Virus record (IMG/VR): IMGVR_UViG_3300034283_002790 | Location: 32,001-96,000 of that record | DNA length: 64,000 bases | DNA from: a virus | Reading direction: 5' to 3' (one strand) | Part shown: positions 22,218 to 59,391 of the stretch, piece after piece | Numbering within the stretch: position 1 is the first letter of the stretch | How the letters are laid out: each line of letters begins with the position of its first letter | Notes under the pieces: generated by a model | Databases searched by the model: none | What the model saw: the letters and a program-made list of their open reading frames with translations, nothing else | What the model was told of the DNA's origin: nothing | Program-made: the position numbers and the translations under genes

Positions 22218-22614
22218 ATACTACTTTTTTTTCAAATTCTAAGACAATGTCTCTTTCATAAAGTTTATCTTTTATTTGTTGTTCTTCCTCGCCAAAGTGA
22301 AAAACTAGTCTTTTTGTTATCGAAAAATCAAGATTATCGTTTTCTTTTTCCCAACCCAATGCTAATACACCATCCATACAATCAACAACAGAAAAAACAT
22401 CAGAATCTTGAACTAAATCAAAGGATATACCCCCCTTATTTAGTACGCCCACTCTAGTAATGTATTCAATGTCAGGTGGATGTGGATATCCATTCGCTGG
22501 TCTAGATTCCCAATTTTCACCCCACACTTCTTTAGTTTCTGAAAATATAAATTCATAAATGTTGTCACCTTTAAAATTAGGACCAAGTCCATTTATGTAT
22601 ATTAAATAATTCAC
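22207..22614 (-). CDS. hypothetical protein
   Basis: 135-aa ORF overlapping both neighbours. Confidence 0.75.
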   Translation of the reverse strand: MNYLIYINGLGPNFKGDNIYEFIFSETKEVWGENWESRPANGYPHPPDIEYITRVGVLNKGGISFDLVQDSDVFSVVDCMDGVLALGWEKENDNLDFSITKRLVFHFGEEEQQIKDKLYERDIVLEFEKKVVYEH

Positions 22615-24122
22615 AAAATATTTCCTTTGGGGGTTATTTTAAATTCTCTGTTACTAGTTCTAAAAACTAAATTATTTTTGTTAGTTTTCCCCATGAATGT
22701 TGCGTGTGGGAATTTTTCCATCAATTTAATCGCATTTCTTTCTTGGGACACACTTTCAGATAATTGTTGAATTCTATTTTTTTGTTTATCTGTGTTATCA
22801 AAATATTTGGAAATTATTGAGTCAACTGTAGTTGATTCCATGAATCTATTTTTCTCGAATGTGCGATTCCTTTTTCTAGCCCCATGTTTAATGTGTTGTT
22901 TTTCACCAGTACCTTCACACCAATCACACATTGCATCTGTTTTTTCATCATGACCTGAACCATTACAATGATCACACACATCTACTTCAAAATCACCAAA
23001 TTCATCTAATTCACCCATTTTTTTCATCATCTCACCTTGGTGTTTCATAGACACTGACTTACCAATTGCACTACCCAAATTCATAGTTTCCATCATTTCA
23101 CCACCTGTGGGGGGAGTTGGTATTGGTGGTGTCACCGAACCATCGAGACCTAATTTTGACATGTCATAATCCATATCTTCTTCTGGTACTTTTCTTGAAT
23201 TTTCCGTATCTTCAATTCCTTCTTCACTAGAGAACTCGTCGTCAGAATCTGATTCTTCATCATTACCTTCTAATTTATTTAAGATATCATCAACATCATC
23301 ATCAGATAACTTAGTTAAATCCAAAGAAGATAATACTGAGTTAATAACCCACTTTACATTATCTGTCGTCATTGCTTCTTCATCCTCAGAAGAAAATTGT
23401 CTAATTTTCTGAGTCAATTTACCAACCATTTTTTGAATGGATTTATAAGTAACAACTTCTTCACCCTCGTTTGATCCCATCTCGGAACTATCCGGTTCTG
23501 GTGTTTCAAAATCAAAATCAGTTTCTTCGGTATCAGTTGTTTCTTCCGTACCTATTTCTGATCCTAAATCTGTTCCCATATCTGTTCCCATTTCAGGAGA
23601 TGGTGTTGTGTCCATCGCTGGTTCTGGTGCGGGTGCTGGAGGAGCAGGAACTGGAGGTGGAACTTGTGCTTGTGGTTGGGGTTTTGGTTTAGGAGTTGGT
23701 GCTCCTTGTTCACTCATTTCAGATTTTTTATATTTTAAAAAATATTTGTTTTTTTGACGTTCCTCAATTTCGTTTTCAAAAATGTTTGTACCGACAGTAT
23801 TTTCATTAACCATGTTTAACTCTTTGGCCATGAAATTTAATTTTTTAAGTGCGGTTGAGTAAGAACCAAAGTATTCCCTATTTTTCATTGGGGATATATA
23901 TTCACTATGCGATTCGTTTAATTTTCTTTTAATAACATAACCACCTTTTTCTTTTTCAATTTGGTATGTGTTTCCGTCCGCTAATTCTACAGAATAATTG
24001 ACAGAACTTGATTCATTTACATTTTGTGGAACGTTCTCATTGTATCGTGCAATTTGCATAATACGATTAATTTTTTCCATTCCTTGAAGTTTTTCACTTC
24101 CTACAGGTCTAAATCCTCCCAT
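22611..24122 (-). CDS. acidic Pro-rich late protein with a DnaJ-type CxxCxGxG zinc-finger pair
   Basis: CDHCNGSG...CDWCEGTG, Pro-rich linker, many [ILM]-x-E sites. Confidence 0.65.
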   Translation of the reverse strand: MGGFRPVGSEKLQGMEKINRIMQIARYNENVPQNVNESSSVNYSVELADGNTYQIEKEKGGYVIKRKLNESHSEYISPMKNREYFGSYSTALKKLNFMAKELNMVNENTVGTNIFENEIEERQKNKYFLKYKKSEMSEQGAPTPKPKPQPQAQVPPPVPAPPAPAPEPAMDTTPSPEMGTDMGTDLGSEIGTEETTDTEETDFDFETPEPDSSEMGSNEGEEVVTYKSIQKMVGKLTQKIRQFSSEDEEAMTTDNVKWVINSVLSSLDLTKLSDDDVDDILNKLEGNDEESDSDDEFSSEEGIEDTENSRKVPEEDMDYDMSKLGLDGSVTPPIPTPPTGGEMMETMNLGSAIGKSVSMKHQGEMMKKMGELDEFGDFEVDVCDHCNGSGHDEKTDAMCDWCEGTGEKQHIKHGARKRNRTFEKNRFMESTTVDSIISKYFDNTDKQKNRIQQLSESVSQERNAIKLMEKFPHATFMGKTNKNNLVFRTSNREFKITPKGNIL

Positions 24123-24199: not shown

Positions 24200-24961
24200 T
24201 TATTGTTTCATGGACAATTTTTTATCTATCATTTTAGTTGGGTAATCATAGAGTTTTTCAATGTAACCGTTTCTCCTAAGAACTTTGAAAACTAAATTTT
24301 CTAAACTCATCTCCCCACCTTTTTCAAGACCACAGTTCCTGAACTTTTTTAATTTTTCTTTATATTTTTTAATCAAGTCCTTAATTTCCTCTGGGTCCTC
24401 ATCCTCAATATTATCCAAAACACCATCAATTATAGACATCCATTGTCTTGATTTTTCCTTCAAAAGTTCGAAATCAATTTGGTCAGAACTTTCTTTTTTT
24501 GGAACACTAATCCATTCGTCAAATAATATAGAATAAACCCCACTACTGAACGTTGTTTCTTTTTCGCTCTGAACAAAACATTCAACGTCATAACCAAAAA
24601 ATTTAATATTGTGTTTTTGATTGAAAATAACTTTTTTGAGATCAAAAAATTCCACGTAAAGTTCCTTTTGGTTTTCAGCAAATTGATCATAATCAACAAC
24701 CACATGAAGATCTATATCGGAATATTCGGACCAATTGTAATTTACTAAAGATCCGATAATAATTAAATCAGAAATTACAACGTCAACTCCCAAAAATGAA
24801 ATAAATTGATTTGAAATTTCTAATAATTTTTCTCTTACTTCGGGTCGTATTTTATAATTTTCCGCACTATCTGTTTTAGAACCTTTTTTATCGAGATACC
24901 AAACTTTGGAATTTAGGTCTTTTTTTGGTATAAAACTTTTAAGCAATTCTTTTTCCATCAA
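24200..24961 (-). CDS. Pol-beta-superfamily nucleotidyltransferase
   Basis: IIIGSLVNYNWSEYSDIDLHVV (hGS..DxD motif) plus a downstream ECF/VE-type third carboxylate region. Confidence 0.75.
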   Translation of the reverse strand: MMEKELLKSFIPKKDLNSKVWYLDKKGSKTDSAENYKIRPEVREKLLEISNQFISFLGVDVVISDLIIIGSLVNYNWSEYSDIDLHVVVDYDQFAENQKELYVEFFDLKKVIFNQKHNIKFFGYDVECFVQSEKETTFSSGVYSILFDEWISVPKKESSDQIDFELLKEKSRQWMSIIDGVLDNIEDEDPEEIKDLIKKYKEKLKKFRNCGLEKGGEMSLENLVFKVLRRNGYIEKLYDYPTKMIDKKLSMKQ

Positions 24962-24982: not shown

Positions 24983-25228
24983 TTAAGTTAATTTTTTGTA
25001 CTTAAAAGTTTTTGATATTTCCTTATTAAAAAAGTTTCCATGAGATTTTGCACTTCTAAATGAAGTATAAAGTTGGTGCGGTACTTCATCATATTCATAC
25101 CTTATCCCATTCTTAAATTCTACAACTAATTTTTTAGTGATTGTATCATATTCTGTTTTCACTAAATTTGAAGATTCAATTTCATTAATAATCTTCGTAC
25201 CCAAAATAATTTCTTTTAGTATTGCCAT
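24983..25228 (-). CDS. KTSC-domain protein
   Basis: SSNLVKTEYD...LVVEFKNG..YEY.EVP..LY..F..A.SHG.FFN is the KTSC signature. Start placed at MAILKE (25228). Confidence 0.8.
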   Translation of the reverse strand: MAILKEIILGTKIINEIESSNLVKTEYDTITKKLVVEFKNGIRYEYDEVPHQLYTSFRSAKSHGNFFNKEISKTFKYKKLT

Positions 25229-25306
25229 GTTTTTTATTTTAAAAATATGAACTTTAAAAAAAAAATCCACCCTATAGGTAGATTTAATAATTGGGATATA
25301 TATTTT

Positions 25307-25663
25307 TTATTTAAGTAAATTGATTACTTTTTTTTCTTTTTCTTTTTTAAAAGGAAAAAATATTTCTAAAATCCCATCTCGAAGATCTGCTTTAATTTTT
25401 TCCTGATCATATTTTTCCCCAATTGTATATTTTTTTGAAATTGTGGACTTTGAAACCGGGGATCCGGACTCAAAATTTAGTTCCCTTTCCCCCTTAATTA
25501 AAAGATGATTGTCCTTGACCTCAACACTAAGGTTATCTTTATTATATCCAGGAACTTCAATACTAAAATAACTCCCCGACTCCGAATGATGAAGTTCGGG
25601 TGTATTCAAGTTTTTTAAATTTTGACTCATTTGATAAAAGTCATCATAAAATAATTTAAACAT
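25307..25663 (-). CDS. small heat-shock protein (Hsp20/alpha-crystallin)
   Basis: IEVPGYNKDNLSVEV.D..L.IKGER and IKADLRDGILEI. Confidence 0.9.
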   Translation of the reverse strand: MFKLFYDDFYQMSQNLKNLNTPELHHSESGSYFSIEVPGYNKDNLSVEVKDNHLLIKGERELNFESGSPVSKSTISKKYTIGEKYDQEKIKADLRDGILEIFFPFKKEKEKKVINLLK

Positions 25664-25725
25664 TTTTTTTTATTTTTAGGTTTATTTTGTTATTTTTGTT
25701 CTCGAAAATTGTTCCATTGTGTGGA

Positions 25726-25775
25726 AAGTGTCATATTGACACTTATATTCTTATTTCAGTGACAAATTGACAAAT
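25726..25775. promoter_or_regulatory. putative operator in the hsp20/clpC divergent region
   Basis: Perfect inverted repeat AAGTGTCA-TAT-TGACACTT (25726-25744) and direct repeat TGACAAAT x2 (25760-25775). Confidence 0.5.
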
Positions 25776-25824
25776 ATGGACTTTATTAATATTTTAATTT
25801 ATATTTAAAAAAAAACAAAAAATT

Positions 25825-27879
25825 ATGATTGAGTTAGGTGATGAAAACGAGAAAAGAAATAAAAAAAGTGAATCAGGTACACCAGTACTAGATAATTTTA
25901 GTAAAGACCTGTTGAAGTTGGCAGAACAGGGTAAATTGGATCCTGTAATTGGAAGAAAGTCTGAGATTTTACGAATTGCACAAATTCTATCAAGAAGAAA
26001 GAAAAATAATCCAATTATTATCGGTGAACCTGGGTCGGGAAAAACAGCAATAGTTGAGGGTCTCGCGATGTTGATAAAAGAGGGTGAGTGTCCCAAAAAT
26101 CTTTTAGATAAAAGAATTCTTTCCTTGGATATTAATTCATTAGTTGCTGGTACCAAATATCGTGGTCAGTTTGAAGAAAGAATGAAAGTAATTATCGAGG
26201 AACTTAATCAAAATCCTGATATTATAATTTTTATTGATGAGATTCACACCATGGTTGGAGCCGGAAATAGTTCTGGTTCTTTGGATGCCTCCAACATCTT
26301 AAAACCGGCACTCTCAAGAGGTGAAATTCAGTGTATTGGTGCAACAACACTTGACGAATATAGAAAACATTTTGAAAAGGATGGTGCTTTAGACAGGAGA
26401 TTCCAAAAAATTATTGTAAGTCCATCCACTAAAGATGAAACATTTGAAATTTTGAAACAAAGTAAATTAAAATATGAAGATCATCATAAAGTCACATATG
26501 ATGATAATACTTTACGATTATTTGTTGAACTTGCGGATCGTTATATCACTGATCGAGAGTTTCCGGATAAAGCGTTCGATATCTTGGATGAGGTTGGTGC
26601 TAGAATGCAAATAGATATCAAACTTCCTGAGGTTATCGAAAATCTTAAACAAGAGGCATCCGACATCAAAAAACAAAAAATGGATGTCATCAAGAAACAA
26701 AATTACGAACAAGCGGCGGAGTTACGTGATAGAGAAAGACAAGTTTTAGGTTTGTTGGATGAAGAAAAAAAGAAATTCGAACAACAACTTAAAAATAGTA
26801 AAAGACCTATCGGAGAGGAATTAGTCTATGAAGTAGTCTCCAATATGACTAAAATTCCGGTTTCTAAAATTAACCTGGATGAGAAAAAATCTTTAGTTGA
26901 TCTTGATAAAAATTTAAATGGAAAAGTTATAGGTCAGGAAGATGCAGTAATTAAGATTACCAAATCCATCAGAAGAAATAGAATTGGTATAAAAGATCCA
27001 AATAAACCAATTGGTTCTTTTATATTTTTAGGATCCACCGGTGTAGGTAAGACATTTTTAGCAAAACAACTTGCCAAAGAAATATTTGGAAGTGAGGAAA
27101 ATCTAATAAGAGTTGATATGAGTGAATATCAAGAAAAACATACTATTTCAAAGTTGATAGGATCACCACCAGGATATGTAGGTCATGACGAAGGCGGACA
27201 GTTAACAGAACAAGTTAAAAATAAACCTTATTCAGTAATTTTGTTTGACGAAATAGAAAAGGCACATAAAGACATTTTCTCAACTTTGTTACAAATATTA
27301 GATGACGGACATGTAACCGATTCTTTGGGTAGGAAAATTAATTTCAAAAACACTATGATTATTATGACATCCAATATCGGTGTTAAAAAACTTCAAGATT
27401 TCGGAACGGGTGTTGGATTCAAAAGTTCGAATAGTGAGGCAGTGCAAGAAGAACATAGAAGAGATGTTCTTAAAAAAGAATTAAGTAAGTTCTTTGCCCC
27501 TGAATTTTTGAATAGAATTGATGACGTTGTTATTTTTAATTCGCTTAGAAAAGAACATATTGATGTTATTACTAAATTGGAGATCGATAAACTATTAGAA
27601 AGAGTGACTTCTAAAAATTACTTTTTCTCTTACGATCAAAATGTAATTGATTTAATATCTGAAGTGGGGTTTGATGAAACATTTGGTGCCAGACCCATCA
27701 AACGAGCAATTCAAGATAAAATTGAAGATTTGATTTCAGAAAAAATCCTCACGGATGAAATTGTGGAAAATCAAGAATATGTTTTAGTTGTGGAGGGTGA
27801 AAAAGAAAATAGAAAAATTTCAGTCTTAACTAAAGAGATTCCTAAAACAACCAAAAAGAGGACATCAAAAATTAAATAA
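25825..27879 (+). CDS. clpC: ClpC-like AAA+ unfoldase lacking the N-terminal Clp-repeat domain
   Basis: Two NBDs (GEPGSGKT, GSTGVGKT), pore loops KYRG and GYVG, UVR-like M-domain (YEQAAELRDRE) and ClpP-docking VGF loop. Starts about 20 aa before NBD1. Confidence 0.88.
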   Translation: MIELGDENEKRNKKSESGTPVLDNFSKDLLKLAEQGKLDPVIGRKSEILRIAQILSRRKKNNPIIIGEPGSGKTAIVEGLAMLIKEGECPKNLLDKRILSLDINSLVAGTKYRGQFEERMKVIIEELNQNPDIIIFIDEIHTMVGAGNSSGSLDASNILKPALSRGEIQCIGATTLDEYRKHFEKDGALDRRFQKIIVSPSTKDETFEILKQSKLKYEDHHKVTYDDNTLRLFVELADRYITDREFPDKAFDILDEVGARMQIDIKLPEVIENLKQEASDIKKQKMDVIKKQNYEQAAELRDRERQVLGLLDEEKKKFEQQLKNSKRPIGEELVYEVVSNMTKIPVSKINLDEKKSLVDLDKNLNGKVIGQEDAVIKITKSIRRNRIGIKDPNKPIGSFIFLGSTGVGKTFLAKQLAKEIFGSEENLIRVDMSEYQEKHTISKLIGSPPGYVGHDEGGQLTEQVKNKPYSVILFDEIEKAHKDIFSTLLQILDDGHVTDSLGRKINFKNTMIIMTSNIGVKKLQDFGTGVGFKSSNSEAVQEEHRRDVLKKELSKFFAPEFLNRIDDVVIFNSLRKEHIDVITKLEIDKLLERVTSKNYFFSYDQNVIDLISEVGFDETFGARPIKRAIQDKIEDLISEKILTDEIVENQEYVLVVEGEKENRKISVLTKEIPKTTKKRTSKIK

Positions 27880-27881
27880 AA

Positions 27882-28622
27882 CTATACGTCTTTTTGGGTC
27901 CAGGTTATTTTATTTTTTGTTTCTTTAGCCATTTGATTCATGTGATTTTTAAATGAATTGTAGAAACTTGTAGGTATTGTTAAACAAATCTTTTTCTTTT
28001 TAACTTTACCTTTTGGTACATTTCTAAATAAATCTCGTCTATCTACATTTGTATTATCCCCAGCGACACCTTGTATTTGGTAATTTGTGGTTTTTTCTCC
28101 AGTTATTGCTGCAGAAACGTATTGTTCTTTTACTGCTTCAGGACTATTCATTACTGTTGCTTTACCGACTTTAGTTGTCCCTGCGGTAATTACTACTCTA
28201 GGGTCTGTAATGTTTTGTTTGATATAAGTAATTAAATTATCCCGTCTTCTTGCCGCTAATGCATTATTATCATATCCAGATGTTGTCCCAACGGCTGATG
28301 CACCACCACCAACAGTAACATAAACTTTTCCTTTAGTCTCCTTTAAAAGATCCTTAATTGTTTGAATTATATCTTTGATTTTTGGATCGTTAGGATTTAT
28401 TGTATCAACACCATTAGCAAATGTAGTTGAACCATTCGAAACTATGTTGTAAGATACATTATATCCATTTGGATATCTTGCCTTTAATCTTTCGATACTA
28501 CTGAGTGCAGGACCACCGAGTGCCTCAGAAATAACAATATTACGTGTTGTACTAGATCCGTGAAGATTTAAAATTCTAAACTTTTCGTCTTCGGTAATAA
28601 ACGTTTTTTGACTCATGGACAT
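27882..28622 (-). CDS. late protein with possible OmpA-C-like peptidoglycan-binding domain
   Basis: YDNNALAARRRDNLITYIK resembles the OmpA-C N..LS..RA..V..YL helix; leader FITEDEKFRILNLH. Confidence 0.4.
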   Translation of the reverse strand: MSMSQKTFITEDEKFRILNLHGSSTTRNIVISEALGGPALSSIERLKARYPNGYNVSYNIVSNGSTTFANGVDTINPNDPKIKDIIQTIKDLLKETKGKVYVTVGGGASAVGTTSGYDNNALAARRRDNLITYIKQNITDPRVVITAGTTKVGKATVMNSPEAVKEQYVSAAITGEKTTNYQIQGVAGDNTNVDRRDLFRNVPKGKVKKKKICLTIPTSFYNSFKNHMNQMAKETKNKITWTQKDV

Positions 28623-28653
28623 TTTTATAATAAATATGTCCTTAAAAAAAAAA

Positions 28654-29439
28654 TTAATGTTTAGAACATCCTAACTCCTCAATTATTTTTTTTCCGATAG
28701 AAATTCCATTATAAGTGTCTTCTAACACAACGTATTCTTGTCTTGTGTGATACCGGTAGTATCCGATAGAAAGATTGAAACAGGATAATCCAAAGTTTTG
28801 ATTTAAAGGGAATATGTCAGTGTAAGGATGATATTGATATAGTGGATCACTAGGGAAATTTTCACAAATTAATCTATTCCCAACTTCAAAAAACTTACTT
28901 TCTCGATTAAACATTTTCTTTCCCATCAGGTATTCTGATATCATATTGTTTTCCGGTGCGTCAAATTGAATGCAGTACCCAACGTTTGAAAAAAATTCTG
29001 GGTCTGCCGCTTTAGAACCGTGACACCCGGTTTCTTCAGAAACAAAGAATGCCGATTTAACATTATCGAGTTCCAATAAAGAAACCATGCAGGCAAATAC
29101 ACCACATTTATTATCACCACCAATACCTGTGGGATCACCCTTGTCATTAAGAGCCCTCCAGGATTTTTTCAGTTCACCCTGGGCGTTGGGTAACATTTCC
29201 TCAATAATATTAATTGGTTCAATGTTATGTACTGTATCGGTGTGTGCGATCACACAAGGAAAAAAATCAACGTCCTGGGAGGTTTGCTTTGTTGCATAGA
29301 TGTTTTTCATCTTATCAACATAAAAAGGTATTTTATTTTCCTCTAACCAATCACAAATAAACTTAACAAGTAAATCTTCTTGATAAGTTTTTGAAGGTAC
29401 TGAAAGTACACTTTTTAAAAGTTCTAAATTATTCATCAT
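28654..29439 (-). CDS. M28/M20/M42-clan zinc peptidase
   Basis: AHTDTV, GIGGDNKCG, FVSEETGCHGS and YHTRQE metal-ligand pattern; TAAATTTG promoter at 29444-29451. Confidence 0.75.
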   Translation of the reverse strand: MMNNLELLKSVLSVPSKTYQEDLLVKFICDWLEENKIPFYVDKMKNIYATKQTSQDVDFFPCVIAHTDTVHNIEPINIIEEMLPNAQGELKKSWRALNDKGDPTGIGGDNKCGVFACMVSLLELDNVKSAFFVSEETGCHGSKAADPEFFSNVGYCIQFDAPENNMISEYLMGKKMFNRESKFFEVGNRLICENFPSDPLYQYHPYTDIFPLNQNFGLSCFNLSIGYYRYHTRQEYVVLEDTYNGISIGKKIIEELGCSKH

Positions 29440-29553
29440 GGTACAAATTTACAACGTTTTATTTTATCTACCAAAAAATTTGACTCATTAAAAAAGTTTT
29501 TTTATATTTATGTCTGTAAATAGTTCATTGAAAACACACCGTACAAAATATAT

Positions 29554-29972
29554 GGGCCTATATTGGATTTGACGGGCGTTGGTTGGATTAAAGGAGCATG
29601 TCGGGTCTGAATTAAACTCGTTAAAAACTGATTCGAACAACAACTGGCAATGTGCTAAACAAAATGGAAACTCTTGGTTTACTAAGAGGTTCTGAAGTTA
29701 CTGTAGCCTAATAGGTTTACGGAAACGGAGGGTCGATCAGACAGATACCTAGTAACAGAAGTCGTAGATGAGTTGGTTTTCACTCTAAAAGAAAACAACG
29801 GTCTCGTTCAGAGGGCTACCGTAACAAAAGTGAACTCGACACAGTTTTTGGTAACAATGTCAAAATAGGAACCAAATATTTTGGAAGATATGAAAAATCT
29901 TAACCTAAACATGTAGTTGTCTTTTTGACAAAACGAGCCGGACGAGGGAGTCGGAGCCCTCTAGGTCCACCA
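29554..29972 (+). ncRNA. ssrA: tmRNA
   Basis: 5' GGGCCTA pairs with 3' TAGGTCC-ACCA, with a G3-U wobble. 5' TATTGGATTTGAC, GCATGT/ACATGT helix, internal tag frame 29646-29714 ending TAA TAG. Confidence 0.92.
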
Positions 29973-29975
29973 ATT

Positions 29976-30007
29976 GATCCCATCATTTAATTATGGTGGG
30001 ATTTTTT
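29976..30007 (+). terminator. intrinsic terminator after tmRNA
   Basis: ATCCCATCAT-TTAATT-ATGGTGGGAT followed by a T-tract. Confidence 0.75.
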
Positions 30008-30269
30008 ATTTATCCTTCATGTTAAAATTAAGAGTATGGTTGATTGTAACTGTTATTTGATTAGTATCGAAATGACGTATTTTACCATCTTCAAAAGAAG
30101 AACATACCCATATGGTATTTCTATGTATCCCATAATCTATTATAAATAAAACCTGGGCTTCTCCAAAAGGTGTGTTCACTGTTATAACTTGTTGTACTTC
30201 ATGAATTGAGGTCATATTGATAAATATGAATATTATAAAATTATCACAGGTTAAATATTTATGATTCAC
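30006..30269 (-). CDS. small hypothetical protein (true start probably an internal Met)
   Basis: C-terminal ~70 aa look globular (VNTPFGEAQVLFIIDYG...WVC...GKIRHF). Confidence 0.65.
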   Translation of the reverse strand: MNHKYLTCDNFIIFIFINMTSIHEVQQVITVNTPFGEAQVLFIIDYGIHRNTIWVCSSFEDGKIRHFDTNQITVTINHTLNFNMKDK

Positions 30270-30271
30270 AT

Positions 30272-30940
30272 ATGAAAATATATTTCGATCATATTAATGG
30301 TTTTGGTAAAATAAGTGATTTCGAGGTAATAGTTAACTGTGCCTATGGAATTCAAGAAAAAGAAGATAACCCATCCGAGTTGATGAATCAAGGGTGGATT
30401 CCCTGGAAAGATAGATGGTATAATGAAAGAAGTACAAGAATAAATCTTACAAACTATAAACCAAGTAAAACGACAAAAAGACTGTCAAATAAAATTACTA
30501 CCAGAAAAGGAGACATAAAAAAATATATAGAGATTTACAAGGAAATTCATCAAAAATACTCCACTCATAAATCATTTCAGAGAAATATAAGTCTTGATAC
30601 ATTTTTAGATTGTGAGATAATAGAATATTGGAAAGATAATCTTATTGCTCTGTCTATTTATAAAATGATCGGAAAGGATATGATTGCATATCAATTTATT
30701 TGGGACTATGAAGATCCAAAATTGTCTATGGGAAATGTTGCTCAGATGTTTGAGTGTGAACAAGCAAGGTTAAATCAATGTGACTATGTTTACCTTATGG
30801 GTGGATATGAAAAATGTTGTGAATACAAATCGGAATTTTCTGGATTTGAGTTTTGGACTGGTCTTGAATGGTCTTCCGATGTTGACTTATATAAAAATCT
30901 TATAAGTCGAGATCAAAAAGTTATAATACAAAATATATAA
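30272..30940 (+). CDS. ATE/Bpt-family aminoacyl-tRNA--protein transferase (N-degron tagging)
   Basis: GW..W...WYNERSTRINL (ATE_N-like) and LSMGNVAQMFECEQAR...YVYLMGGYEKCCEYKSEF (ATE_C-like YxYLG...YK). Confidence 0.7.
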   Translation: MKIYFDHINGFGKISDFEVIVNCAYGIQEKEDNPSELMNQGWIPWKDRWYNERSTRINLTNYKPSKTTKRLSNKITTRKGDIKKYIEIYKEIHQKYSTHKSFQRNISLDTFLDCEIIEYWKDNLIALSIYKMIGKDMIAYQFIWDYEDPKLSMGNVAQMFECEQARLNQCDYVYLMGGYEKCCEYKSEFSGFEFWTGLEWSSDVDLYKNLISRDQKVIIQNI

Positions 30941-30961
30941 AAAAAGGGACAGACTGTCCCT
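30939..30961 (-). terminator. intrinsic terminator closing the large non-coding unit
   Basis: AGGGACA-gac-TGTCCCT hairpin with a U-tract on the minus strand (A-run at 30939-30945). Confidence 0.7.
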
Positions 30962-30964
30962 AAT

Positions 30965-31922
30965 ATTTTACCGGTGGCTCCATTAAAAGAAACGCTGAGA
31001 TTACACGTTTTTGTGAGAACCTTTAGAGTCATTATTGTTTCTACTCTTATCCACTTCCTTTTGGAAAGTATTTCTCAGTGACGGTCTTTTAGGTTTACCA
31101 CTCCTTAAGGTTTGAATTACTCTCATCCTAATCTACTCTTTTCGAGGATGCCTCCCCAACTCGTCCTTGCGGGACTAAAGGTTTTTCGGATAATTACACT
31201 CAGACTTGGGATCTTTGTGTGCAATGAACGGCTCATTACTATGTAGTCACCTTTCATCCAAACCTGACGGACACTTTTCCTTATTTTTTATTAATTATTG
31301 GAATAATCAACTTCCATAAGTTTTGTGTTGTGGATTGTGAAAGTAGTGGTCCGCCAACCAAGCCAACCCATCTTTTGAACGAGTCGATACTCAACTACTC
31401 TCTGAAATGTCCCCATTTCCATATTTTTAGACTACTTCGAAACAAATCTTTTGGTAAAGATTCATTAAGGTTCATAACAGCACCACCTGTACATAAACAT
31501 ACCTTTCGGTTTTAAGTATCCTATAATATTGGAATCCGTAATTATAAAGTTGGATAACTCTATTTCTTACATAATTCCTACGGGTTATTCCTATCGGTGT
31601 TCCCACCTCAACTAGACGACCCACATCGCCCAATCGTCAAACCACTTTCCTTACAGCGTTGCCCTCAGTACTAAAGGTTTAACGGTATCCCGCTTGCATA
31701 CTCGACCTCGAATGTCCGAAGACAAACAAGACGCAAACCAGTTACACTTCTGATTCACTTTATCCCACTTTCGTGGTTTATTTATTGACCATATGCGGCC
31801 AAATATCTTTATTACTCAAAGGAGAGAATTACATCTCTATTATCGGTCAAATAATCTGACCGGACTTTTTTGTAAAAGGATAATTCAATTTTTCAAAGAA
31901 CTTTTCGGACGTTTCCGAACTG
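30965..31922 (-). ncRNA. large (~950 nt) structured non-coding RNA, GOLLD/ROOL-like in size and context
   Basis: No credible ORF and clearly higher GC than the flanks. Tetraloop hairpins CCAC-GAAA-GTGG (31765-31776), TGTC-TTCG-GACA (31713-31724), ACC-GAAA-GGT (31501-31510) and a GCAA-capped stem (31163-31175). Own promoter and terminator. Confidence 0.75.
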
Positions 31923-31929
31923 TTTGATA

Positions 31930-32184: not shown

Positions 32185-33333
32185 TTATAAAATTTTTGAA
32201 AAAATATCCAGAATTCTATTTTTTTCTTCTGAAATTTTTTTGTTGGGATACATTGTGGCGTTCTGTTTGTTTAATTCTGCCTCAATATCATCAAGTTTTT
32301 TAGTTCCGGTTGAAAAAAAATCTTCTAATGCCTTTTTTATTTTTTCTTTATCAACTTTTACTACATTGAACTCTACTTGTTCTGGTGCTTCTTCTTCTGA
32401 AGGTACTTCTGGAGCATTCTTGATATTACCCTCCTTATCCATAAATTCAAAAATATCTTTTCCTTGATCCGTTCCTATGTGTACGTGGCTTGAACTTGGA
32501 TAGGAAGGCCACTCTGTTATTTTCCCAATGAAATCACCAGGTTTTACTTTGTCTCCGGGTTCTAACTTTACAGAATCCAAATGTGTGTAAAAAACACTTG
32601 GATCACCATTTTCACCAGAAATGGACAACTGAGTCCCGAAAATATTTTTTTTCTTTTTACTAGATTCGTGTTTTTTTGCCACTTTTCCATGTGTCAAAGA
32701 ATAAACTGAAGTGCCTATTGGTGCTTGTATATCCCAAGCATGTCTGGATGACCAATCTGGTGTGGATCTTTTGGCATGATCACTTGGTGTTGATATAATT
32801 TTTATTGGGTTTCCTCCAGAAAAAAAAGTCTTAGATTCCATTTTTGGAACTTTTTTCTTTTGTGCTACGGTCATTGTGACTGTCTCTTTATTACCGATTT
32901 CACCACTTACTATTTCCGCCCCAGATAGATATTTCTCAGGATTTACCCAATTTCCAGATTCTGATTTTCTAATTTCAAAATGTAAATGTGGCCCAGTTGA
33001 CTTACCACCACCACCTTCTAAACCTTGTCCACCACCAGATTCGGCAATTTTTTGACCCTGTTTAACTTTATCACCCACATCAACAAGTCTTTGAGTTAAA
33101 TGTGCGTAGGCTGAATAGAAATTTTCTCCATCAACATTATGTTTGATTATTATAAAATTACCATAACCACGTTTATTTCTCATGTCGGATCTAACAACTT
33201 CACCATCTGCAACTGAAATCACATCAGAACCATCAGGTATGGCAATGTCAATACCATTATGATGTTTTCCCCATCTAGGACCAAATCCAGAGGTCTTAGT
33301 TCCTTTTTTAGATAATGGATAAACTAATTTCAT
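32185..33333 (-). CDS. tandem double M23 peptidase (cell-wall endopeptidase)
   Basis: Domain 1 HNGID...HLHFE and domain 2 HAWDIQA...HVHIG, each with HxxxD and HxH ligands. Confidence 0.88.
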   Translation of the reverse strand: MKLVYPLSKKGTKTSGFGPRWGKHHNGIDIAIPDGSDVISVADGEVVRSDMRNKRGYGNFIIIKHNVDGENFYSAYAHLTQRLVDVGDKVKQGQKIAESGGGQGLEGGGGKSTGPHLHFEIRKSESGNWVNPEKYLSGAEIVSGEIGNKETVTMTVAQKKKVPKMESKTFFSGGNPIKIISTPSDHAKRSTPDWSSRHAWDIQAPIGTSVYSLTHGKVAKKHESSKKKKNIFGTQLSISGENGDPSVFYTHLDSVKLEPGDKVKPGDFIGKITEWPSYPSSSHVHIGTDQGKDIFEFMDKEGNIKNAPEVPSEEEAPEQVEFNVVKVDKEKIKKALEDFFSTGTKKLDDIEAELNKQNATMYPNKKISEEKNRILDIFSKIL

Positions 33334-33335
33334 AT

Positions 33336-33824
33336 TTACATAAATACTTCATTCTTTGAAAACCACTCAGGTATATTTCTATTTTTCCACACGGCAAAAT
33401 TCTTTTTCGATCCCATGTAGTAATTTCTGTAAGATTCTACCACATCGATAACTTTGTATTCATCTGGCATTGCTTTAGGAGGAGTTGTAAAATCAATGTC
33501 CGGTATTTGTGGTTTGTTAATCATACACCACTCAATAACTTGTTGGGACTTGTGTCGTTTACCGTAACGATAAGTATACTCTTTACACAACTCCAATCCG
33601 AGATCACAAAGATAAAGATAATTAGATAGTGATTCTCGAGCCCAAATCGCACAGGGGTGATTTTTGTGAGATAACTTGTAGGGAACTTGAGGGGTAACTT
33701 GGGGGGTCATATGATGAACACCACATAAAAGTTGTGCTGTTTCAAGGATCATTTTTACTACGTGCTTATCACAATGATATTGAGCACATTTTTTCGTGTT
33801 GTAATCTAAAATAAAAATATTCAT
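33336..33824 (-). CDS. pyrimidine-dimer DNA glycosylase / T4 endonuclease V-like
   Basis: MNIF.LD...CA..HCDKHVVKMILETAQLL...HKNHPC..WARES signature; TACCTTTG promoter at 33829-33836. Confidence 0.8.
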   Translation of the reverse strand: MNIFILDYNTKKCAQYHCDKHVVKMILETAQLLCGVHHMTPQVTPQVPYKLSHKNHPCAIWARESLSNYLYLCDLGLELCKEYTYRYGKRHKSQQVIEWCMINKPQIPDIDFTTPPKAMPDEYKVIDVVESYRNYYMGSKKNFAVWKNRNIPEWFSKNEVFM

Positions 33825-38124: not shown

Positions 38125-38136
38125 ATTTTTAATTAG

Positions 38137-38209
38137 TATCCCTATCAGGGCTCGAACCTGAATGATTTCTTTAGAAGAGAAATATGTTATCCAGTTACAT
38201 CATAGGGAC
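38137..38209 (-). tRNA. tRNA-Arg(TCT)
   Basis: GTCCCTA/TAGGGAT acceptor, D-arm ATGT-AACTGGATA-ACAT, TTTCT-CTTCTAA-AGAAA anticodon arm, TCAGG-TTCGAGC-CCTGA T-arm. CCA not encoded. Confidence 0.92.
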
Positions 38210-58965: not shown

Positions 58966-59391
58966 ATGAAAAAAGTAGAAAACACAAGTGTTGTAAAATT
59001 TAACTACACAGGAAAATTAGAAGATGGGTCTGTATTTGATTCTTCACTTACTGAAGGTAGAGAACCATTAGTTGCGACTTTAGGTCAAGGACAATTGATC
59101 CCTGGTTTTGAATCAGGATTATTAGAAATGTCAGAAGGTGAAAATAAGACTATAGAAATTGAACCTGATCAAGCATATGGTTTGTTTAGGGAAGATTTAA
59201 TCGATGAGGTTACAAAAGATAAAGTTCCAGAAACTGTACAACCGGGTGACATGTTACAAGCCTGGACCCCTCAGGGTCCTATGCCTGTAAAAGTATTAGA
59301 AGTTAAAGAAGAAACTGTAGTTTTAGATGCTAACCACCCATTAGCAGGTAAAAAACTAATTTTTGATTTAGAGGTACTAGAAGTTTCCTAG
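58966..59391 (+). CDS. FKBP-type peptidyl-prolyl isomerase (short SlyD-like)
   Basis: YTGKLEDGSVFDSS, LIPGFE, IF domain and DANHPLAGKKLIFD; no His-rich tail. Confidence 0.92.
   Translation: MKKVENTSVVKFNYTGKLEDGSVFDSSLTEGREPLVATLGQGQLIPGFESGLLEMSEGENKTIEIEPDQAYGLFREDLIDEVTKDKVPETVQPGDMLQAWTPQGPMPVKVLEVKEETVVLDANHPLAGKKLIFDLEVLEVS

Follow-up and report, generated by a model that had tools for sequence, protein, structure and literature searches.

Background

The ssrA tag added in bacterial trans-translation by transfer-messenger RNA (tmRNA) is read by ClpXP or ClpAP, helped by SspB. To our knowledge, tmRNAs and Clp components of phages have been recorded as annotations only. Phage tmRNAs occur in the mycobacteriophage Bxz1 group, in Bacillus phage G and in huge phages (PMC4131195, PMC12484599, PMC7162821). 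Phage G specifies a 13-residue tag, and has genes for ClpXP in another part of its genome (PMC12484599). In Mollicutes, a longer ssrA tag is read by Lon, not by ClpXP (PMC9382460). The locus described here resides in the IMG/VR virus record IMGVR_UViG_3300034283_002790, of 187,384 bases. Bases 32001-96000 of the record make up the 64,000-base stretch analysed, called here the window, to which coordinates refer unless another locus is named. Genes for a ClpC-type unfoldase without N-domain (N-less ClpC), a PepT-like peptidase and a tmRNA lie close to each other in it, followed by a small homolog of the ATE/Bpt aminoacyl-tRNA transferases (mini-ATE). A first-pass annotation had read the interval 24983-30940 as one proteostasis module. 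All the parts it named were found, at or near the positions assigned to them. Left unnamed were a KTSC gene at the start of the interval, two more open reading frames (ORFs; 27882-28622 and 30006-30269) and a GOLLD RNA located downstream.

The phage tmRNA shares with bacterial trans-translation a one-piece architecture, the G3:U70 pair, the CCA end, a tag ending in hydrophobic residues plus alanine, and a Clp unfoldase with a ClpP-docking loop. It differs in being phage-encoded, in a tag of 21-22 residues versus 9 in Chitinophagales, and in the company of an N-less ClpC rather than ClpX; SmpB, ClpP and SspB are missing at the phage locus. As in the phage systems known, a large phage has its own tmRNA, and phage G also has ClpXP. 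The ssrA-Lon pair of Mollicutes is a precedent for the joint change of tag and protease, as a longer, lineage-specific tag and a changed likely protease are found in both cases. In Mollicutes the pairing was demonstrated experimentally; in the phage it is suggested only by the linkage of the genes, with ClpC-ClpP instead of Lon as candidate protease. Neither a conserved adjacency of tmRNA with a Clp ATPase and a peptidase, nor a tag of double length, is described in the open-access literature searched. The reading favoured here, to which a probability of about 55% is assigned, is that two unrelated things meet in the interval, a conserved ClpC block hosting a putative tag-and-degrade pathway, and a mobile mini-ATE cassette.

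The conserved ClpC block

A scan of viral contigs for ClpC returned at least 597 related stretches. The best 80, sharing 67-85% ClpC identity, were analysed, and all counts of loci out of 80 given below refer to this set. N-less ClpC, peptidase and tmRNA form a strongly conserved syntenic block. The peptidase gene lies beside clpC in 78/80 loci, and the tmRNA is present in all the 65 loci long enough to show it. The other 15 end before the tmRNA could be seen, less than 1.5 kb past the peptidase, and the gap between peptidase and tmRNA is never below 1.1 kb in relatives. The linkage of the three genes, which the first-pass annotation had proposed from the window, is thus found in the relatives as well. 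The conserved block includes a zinc-finger protein, a nucleotidyltransferase, a KTSC protein, sometimes Hsp20, the N-less ClpC, the PepT-like peptidase, the tmRNA, and often GOLLD, and its genes keep a fixed order around clpC across the 80 loci.

The clpC gene (25825-27879, plus strand) encodes a double-ring AAA+ unfoldase of 684 amino acids (aa), which aligns to residues 149-811 of S. aureus ClpC (E 1e-209) and has no match to Clp_N (PF02861). A UVR motif (PF02151, region 277-306), weak and below the Pfam cut-off, aligns to the M-domain of ClpC, and a GVGF motif at about residue 529 is aligned with the ClpP-docking loop of the S. aureus protein. The description of a ClpC which keeps the VGF loop and the M-domain and has lost the N-terminal domain therefore holds, also when checked by hidden Markov model. 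Family statistics are based on 81 phage ClpCs, 665-719 aa in length. Both Walker A/B pairs, both pore loops and the UVR-type M-domain are kept across the family, and a G[VI]GF docking loop is found in the D2 ring of all 81 members. None has more than 33 open codons upstream, versus 61-367 additional upstream codons (median 164) in all the 75 cellular relatives assessable for the N-terminus. For this reason loss of the N-domain is regarded, on alignment and codon counts, as a fixed trait of the phage family. Phage and Firmicutes/Chitinophagaceae ClpCs share the D1 ring, the UVR M-domain, the D2 ring and the VGF-type loop. The N-domain of about 150 aa, site of contact with adaptors, ClpS and phospho-arginine, is found in the 75/75 assessable cellular proteins and in none of the 81 phage members.

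Five large relatives were also searched, including the complete 304 kb G001 and the 309 kb G003. A gene for a full-length ClpP is found in three of the five, at a distance of 20-30 kb from clpC (G002:C1:147522-148049; G003:C1:245312-245839; G004:C1:143701-144228). SmpB is encoded by one of the five, ClpS and an ATE-like protein by none.

The peptidase gene (28654-29439, minus strand; phrog_4191, E 5.5e-28) encodes a PepT-like (M20, clan MH) di-metal peptidase of 261 aa, reduced to the catalytic domain. In the predicted structure, which has a mean predicted local distance difference test score (pLDDT) of 92.1, the best fold matches are PepT enzymes of family M20B (template modelling (TM) scores 0.72-0.79, E down to 6e-14), followed by M42 aminopeptidases and the catalytic domain of DapE. 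The metal-binding and catalytic residues (H-x-D, D, E-E, D, H) form a full set when aligned to PepT, and H66, D68, D109, E135, E136, D160 and H231 are at least 97% conserved in 76 homologs. The phage enzyme thus shares with Peptidase T, the M20B tripeptidase, the best fold and the complete active site. It differs in the lack of the lid/dimerisation domain (261 versus about 410 aa, with only the flanking segments aligning), in four conserved cysteines, and in having no match to Pfam M20 or M28 at E 0.01 or better. An M28-clan peptidase had been proposed; the clan, MH, is the right one, whereas family M28 was rejected, given the missing Pfam match and a fold list led by PepT. Two forms occur at the same position after clpC, a short one, encoded on the minus strand (about 260 aa), and a long one, encoded on the plus strand (about 340 aa), which carries a 75-aa acidic C-terminal extension (L032:11724-12752(+), L013:10087-11109(+)). 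Adjacency to clpC hence survives both inversion and change of form.

The tmRNA gene (29554-29972, plus strand) is a full-length match to RF00023 (model positions 1-374), scoring 74 bits against a cut-off of 47, and the tmRNA announced by the first-pass annotation is therefore genuine; those of relatives score 50.6-90.9 bits. Detection relied on Rfam and nhmmer instead of ARAGORN. With a single query, nhmmer found tmRNAs in 62/80 loci, and Rfam added three which nhmmer had missed. ARAGORN misses the tmRNA of the window, and detects just 11 of the 63 clade tmRNAs. With 52 tmRNAs missed, surveys based on this program undercount these phage genes. The failure may be due to the T-arm (29939-29972), which in the subclade of the window has an 8-nucleotide (nt) loop, AGUCGGAG, instead of the canonical 7-nt loop of the GUUCRANU type; more distant members of the clade have a canonical T-loop. 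The acceptor stem GGGCCUA pairs with UAGGUCC, followed by ACCA, and the CCA end is encoded. Six variants of the stem occur in the clade, each fully complementary, and all contain G3:U70, the alanine identity pair, which is therefore kept while the acceptor stem covaries.

The tag frame (29646-29711, plus strand) starts at the resume codon GGC at 29646, and consists of 21 codons, GNVLNKMETLGLLRGSEVTVA, followed by TAA and then TAG. A frame of 21-22 codons is open in 60/63 clade tmRNAs and specifies 37 distinct peptides, in which G1, K6, G11 and L12 never vary, and R14 and the C-terminal V-x-x-A hardly do. Diversity at the three codon positions is 0.35, 0.26 and 0.48; the third position is the most variable, as for a translated frame, and the tag evolves under coding constraint. 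The tmRNAs of three Chitinophagales genomes encode 9-residue tags which start with GN and end with AA; for a fourth genome ARAGORN gives a different, 19-residue frame, treated as unreliable. Given the GN start and AA end in common with the 9-mers, the phage tag looks, by sequence comparison, like a tag of the host type into which about 12 conserved residues have been placed. The tmRNA is preceded by a promoter-like site (29480-29508, plus strand; TTGACT-17-TATATT), which is only a 10/12 match to consensus, and such sites are not enriched in the region. A hairpin resembling an intrinsic terminator (29976-30003, plus strand), with an 11-pair stem and a T-run, comes right after the CCA end.

Genomic setting and host

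Genes for T4-like capsid, portal, prohead protease and terminase border the ClpC region, just upstream, and the completeness of the record is estimated by CheckV at 64%. On these grounds the record most likely represents part of a jumbo phage genome of about 290 kb. A DNA-level search of phage records returned no cultured close relative; clpC alone matched, in uncultured huge phages and in unrelated records. The closest cellular ClpCs, 55-58% identical, come from metagenome-assembled genomes of Chitinophagaceae/Chitinophagales and from Sediminibacterium, and this sequence kinship points to Bacteroidota. Flavobacterium, named earlier as the source of host ClpP, was rejected as the specific host, since the nearest relatives are found in Chitinophagaceae.

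The mini-ATE cassette

The mini-ATE gene (30272-30940, plus strand) encodes a 222-aa homolog of ATE/Bpt-like aminoacyl-tRNA transferases, which matches ATE_C (PF04377) with 37.5 bits against a cut-off of 25. The folds most similar to the model (pLDDT 87.8) are those of human, yeast and K. lactis ATE1, and next come MprF, L/F-transferase and FemX; TM is 0.62 with human ATE1 (E 6e-9), and up to 0.64 with the K. lactis enzyme. Two results count against a genuine transferase in the cassette. There is no Pfam match to ATE_N, and the best score against the NCBIfam Bpt and arginyltransferase equivalogs is 24.6, versus a cut-off of 252 bits. The N-terminal cysteine motifs are missing as well, C23 being the sole cysteine within the first 110 residues, and not conserved. 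With neither ATE_N nor cysteine motifs, and scores far below the Bpt cut-offs, mini-ATE is best filed, by domain and modelled fold, as a relative of the ATE fold, not as Bpt or ATE1. The label of ATE/Bpt-like transferase is consequently supported for the C-terminal domain and for the fold, not for ATE_N or the Bpt assignment. Similar to Bpt/ATE1 and the L/F-transferases in the ATE_C domain above cut-off and in a whole-protein fold closest to ATE1, mini-ATE differs from Bpt/ATE1 in being phage-borne, always paired with a protein of about 65 aa, and devoid of ATE_N and N-terminal cysteine motifs. Homologs of 220-230 aa form about 120 clusters, almost all of them with PF04377, and 500 stretches were confirmed in viral contigs. 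No annotated viral look-alike of ATE was found in a viral structure library, and a search of the open-access literature retrieved nothing specific on a phage arginyltransferase or on a mini-ATE/partner cassette.

Members of a small protein family (65-87 aa) adjoin mini-ATE in 83/83 core-family loci. The partner gene lies directly downstream, on the same strand and at a median distance of 6 nt, in 81 of them. It is inverted in the window and in L092, where it corresponds to a divergent ORF (listed at 30006-30269 in the window, with a GTG start); the likely start gives a protein of 69 aa (30009-30215, minus strand). The partner has no Pfam, PHROG, NCBIfam or PDB match. No fusion with ATE was found, long ATE entries being mis-called starts or a frameshift. 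The family is part of a wider set of 714 small stand-alone representative proteins, the distant members of which are not beside ATE genes.

The DNA around mini-ATE, to a distance of at most 8 kb in either direction, was analysed in 85 other loci. In just one of them, L092, which is closely related (70% ATE identity) and shares the gene order of the window, is mini-ATE found beside ClpC, peptidase, tmRNA and GOLLD. In 81/85 loci neither Clp nor tmRNA is found within the available DNA. Conversely, an ATE-like gene is found in 0/80 ClpC loci and 0/5 large relatives. In relatives GOLLD directly follows the tmRNA (at least 30/80 loci), and mini-ATE and its partner in the window thus sit in the tmRNA-GOLLD junction. 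Mini-ATE and partner form a two-gene cassette, which is not part of the ClpC block and has been inserted at this junction in the lineage of the window only. ClpS, which delivers N-degron substrates (PMC9382460), is present in the four Chitinophagales genomes searched, none of which has an ATE_C gene.

Genomic backgrounds vary. The mini-ATE gene resides in a replication module in one contig, and near Tad1/Acb2- and Tad2-like anti-defence genes in a crAss-like contig. In the latter (L091:5133-8672) the cassette lies, among small genes, about 2.2-2.6 kb downstream of the Tad1/Acb2-like (a weak match) and Tad2-like genes; the vicinity may hint at a role in counter-defence. Three loci of one distant lineage (L003-L005) carry an ATE-like gene of 254 aa. 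In L004 and L005, which both extend far enough upstream, this gene is 2.2 kb from a Clp_N+D1 AAA+ gene and an APH-like kinase gene; the order (L004:963-4466, L005:5288-8765) is DNA polymerase III alpha, AAA+ protein of 459-464 aa with Clp_N and D1 only, APH-like kinase, ATE-like protein. This lineage provides a second, independent instance of an ATE-like gene near a Clp-type ATPase, here without the small partner.

GOLLD RNA

The conserved 3' part of a GOLLD RNA (30992-31402, minus strand; RF02032, 317.5 bits against a cut-off of 150, model positions 1-416) is located past the cassette. The whole RNA probably spans about 30945-31925, with a promoter-like site at 31958-31930. A two-way terminator-like hairpin (30945-30961) is common to GOLLD and the mini-ATE gene. 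GOLLD is convergent to the tmRNA in the window. GOLLD RNAs have been found amid tRNA genes (PMC6582537). The GOLLD of the 309 kb relative G003 is unlinked from the tmRNA and ends 96 nt upstream of the phage smpB, on the same strand (G003:C1:23555-24471; L086, L174); in G002 it is unlinked from both tmRNA and smpB. The association of GOLLD with components of trans-translation is a lead only. Downstream of GOLLD are genes for a two-domain M23 peptidase (32185-33333, minus strand) and a pyrimidine-dimer glycosylase (33336-33824, minus strand), which recur in some relatives.

Other genes of the region

Upstream of clpC lies a gene for a 503-aa protein (22611-24122, minus strand) with a DnaJ-type CXXCXGXG zinc-finger motif, matching PF00684 weakly, below the Pfam cut-off; a homolog is upstream of clpC in 73/80 loci. 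It is followed by a phage-only nucleotidyltransferase of the pol-beta superfamily (24200-24961, minus strand; phrog_36119, E 1e-37), present in 75/80 loci, in which G70-S71 and D82-x-D84 are at least 97% conserved. In a protein atlas the nucleotidyltransferase corresponds to viral NTP_transf_2 clusters, in some phages fused to, or adjoining, an M23 peptidase; M23 matches occur about 1.8-2.6 kb upstream of clpC in several loci. Neither PDB sequence searches nor the protein atlas provided a functional clue for the nucleotidyltransferase or the zinc-finger protein. The KTSC-domain protein (24983-25228, minus strand; PF13619, E 5e-17) counts 81 aa from a conserved ATG, the ORF being open to 25270. 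Homologs, which begin at M15 of the listed ORF, are found in 77/80 loci and are 59-84% identical.

The small heat-shock protein Hsp20 (25307-25663, minus strand; PF00011, 54.1 bits against 20.8, E 1.8e-14) had been counted among the parts of the module. The gene is real, and yet it is sporadic, detected in 18/80 loci. Between clpC and peptidase, a gene encoding a 246-aa protein (27882-28622, minus strand), with no Pfam or PHROG match, is a lineage-specific insert which has homologs in 2/80 loci. A minus-strand gene of 350-400 aa, here called gene X, lies between peptidase and tmRNA in 71/80 loci (as an example, L035:10880-12079(-), L061:11529-12575(-), L013:11097-12242(-) and L092:6167-7237(-)). 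Gene X, which belongs to neither a Pfam nor a PHROG family, evolves fast, with about 27% identity between subclades. The window lacks it at this position, peptidase and tmRNA being only 115 nt apart there; a paralog, 33% identical, is located about 5 kb past the window end (L267:1285-2397(-)). The FKBP noticed earlier at 58966 is confirmed (58966-59391; PF00254, E 7e-20). A tRNA-Arg(TCT) gene (38136-38209, minus strand) is the sole tRNA of the window by ARAGORN or Rfam.

Discussion

That tmRNA, ClpC and peptidase work in a coupled pathway is plausible. The parts are present, their motifs are intact, the genes are syntenic, and the tag is coding-constrained. A host enzyme would charge the phage tmRNA with alanine, and the charged molecule would enter stalled ribosomes with host SmpB, or with the phage's own SmpB in a few relatives. 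The ribosome would be freed, and a phage-specific tail of 22 residues, alanine plus the 21 encoded, would be appended, the C-terminus of which, a hydrophobic V-x-A, is like that of ordinary ssrA tags. The N-less ClpC would then read the tag and, seated on ClpP, unfold the tagged chains, possibly along with host ClpXP. ClpP would be supplied by the host in the case of the window phage, and by the phage in some relatives. Downstream, the exopeptidase would trim the released peptides to amino acids, and the net effect would be the recycling of ribosomes and amino acids during infection. The cassette would do something else. Mini-ATE most likely moves an amino acid from an aminoacyl-tRNA to an amino group of a protein or peptide, and the partner may be a specificity subunit or the substrate.

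Several points weigh against such a pathway. In the window, clpC and the peptidase gene are convergent, and the tmRNA has promoter-like and terminator-like sites of its own; the genes thus do not form one operon, and are linked by position alone. Neither clpP nor smpB was found in the 187 kb record, which covers about 64% of the genome. The complete 304 kb relative G001 has no clpP, and host ClpP must therefore be assumed. Firmicutes ClpC needs an adaptor or a substrate for assembly (review); no adaptor for the phage ClpC was identified here, and the N-less protein might be inactive, or need a partner such as the KTSC protein. Moreover, the C-terminal end of the tag could equally be read by host ClpXP.

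Alternatively, the block could be a positional island, the genes of which share no pathway. According to this view the tmRNA does no more than raise the capacity for ribosome rescue, and host proteases deal with its products; ClpC serves, with Hsp20 and the zinc-finger protein, as a general unfoldase or chaperone in the assembly of the phage or the takeover of the host; the peptidase has a role of its own, and adjacency reflects inheritance in a slowly rearranging region by the structural genes. Transcription units are indeed separate and of mixed orientation, which leaves substantial weight to this view. The block borders the T4-like terminase, portal, protease and capsid genes, chaperone-type neighbours are present, and Hsp20, the 246-aa gene and gene X occur in some loci but not in others. 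Bacillus phage G, moreover, keeps tmRNA and ClpXP at separate places (PMC12484599). Mere inheritance is difficult to reconcile, however, with co-occurrence figures of 65/65 for the tmRNA and 78/80 for the peptidase at ClpC identities down to 67%, and with a peptidase which remains beside clpC despite inversion and change of form. The ClpP-docking loop is kept family-wide in the phage ClpCs, unlike in ClpB, a pure chaperone which lacks it, and the tag is long, specific and conserved. The island is thus a serious competitor, though we consider it doubtful. Far less credit is given to the notion that the phage ClpC does not use the long tag as a degron, and that the tag marks or neutralises rescued chains otherwise, its amphipathic middle leading for instance to sequestration or to escape from host ClpXP, or that the tmRNA mainly competes for host SmpB and ribosomes. 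The 12 extra residues, with invariant K6, G11 and L12, are more than a simple C-terminal degron would require, the 8-nt T-loop in the subclade of the window is atypical, and a phage tmRNA reduced to the tRNA-like domain has been proposed to titrate SmpB (PMC4131195). Yet the tmRNA found here is full-length, with G3:U70, CCA and an open frame under coding constraint, the C-terminal end of the tag is kept like that of canonical tags, and in known systems extra upstream tag residues bind an adaptor or the protease (review). Such a non-degron role is accordingly considered improbable.

The first-pass annotation had gone further, and supposed that the ATE-like enzyme writes N-degrons and the tmRNA C-degrons, both addressed to an adaptor-independent ClpC that would redirect host ClpP, perhaps against defence proteins or stalled products. 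In favour of this idea, the window and L092 each contain all the parts in an interval of 6 kb, the fold of the enzyme is that of ATE1, an ATE-like gene is found 2.2 kb from a Clp_N+D1 AAA+ gene in the distant lineage L003-L005, and Chitinophagales genomes have ClpS. The comparison of gene order upholds the linkage of ClpC, peptidase and tmRNA, and does not extend to the N-terminal half of the proposal: ATE genes are found in 0/80 ClpC loci and 0/5 large relatives, 81/85 ATE loci have neither Clp nor tmRNA and just one of the 85 has both, so that N- and C-degron writing by one module is not borne out. The constant companion of mini-ATE is the partner of about 65 aa, not Clp. ClpS docks on the N-domain of ClpA or ClpC, N-degron delivery by ClpS uses this domain, which is gone in the phage ClpC, and no phage clpS was found in the 187 kb record or in the five large relatives. 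This dual role is regarded as the least probable of the readings discussed. Since ClpC has no N-domain and the candidate host lineage has ClpS, the reader of N-degrons made by mini-ATE, if any, would be the host machinery, not the phage ClpC. In a combined scheme, mini-ATE and its partner would be a two-component phage system that draws on host aminoacyl-tRNA and adds a residue to the N-terminus of selected host proteins, perhaps involved in defence, or of the partner itself, for the N-degron route of host ClpS, and the middle of the tag would be a private degron for the N-less ClpC. By analogy, such a private pair of tag and ClpC would resemble the ssrA tag and Lon of Mollicutes. The scheme is speculative and rather unlikely, if somewhat less so than a non-degron tag. 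The favoured reading thus remains that of a conserved ClpC block, with a candidate tag-and-degrade pathway, and an unrelated mobile cassette.

Conclusions

The description of the mini-ATE/partner cassette as unrelated cargo, the 65/65 figure for the tmRNA, the ClpS and ATE status of Chitinophagales, and the links of GOLLD are new to this work. GOLLD, repeatedly sited by the tmRNA and once by smpB, provides a small, concrete clue to the function of this RNA. The cassette, if active, would add a first viral member to the aminoacyl-tRNA protein transferases. A whole family of phages keeps a tmRNA with a double-length tag by an N-less ClpC and an exopeptidase, and whether these phages have a private tag-and-degrade, or recycling, route thereby becomes a testable question.

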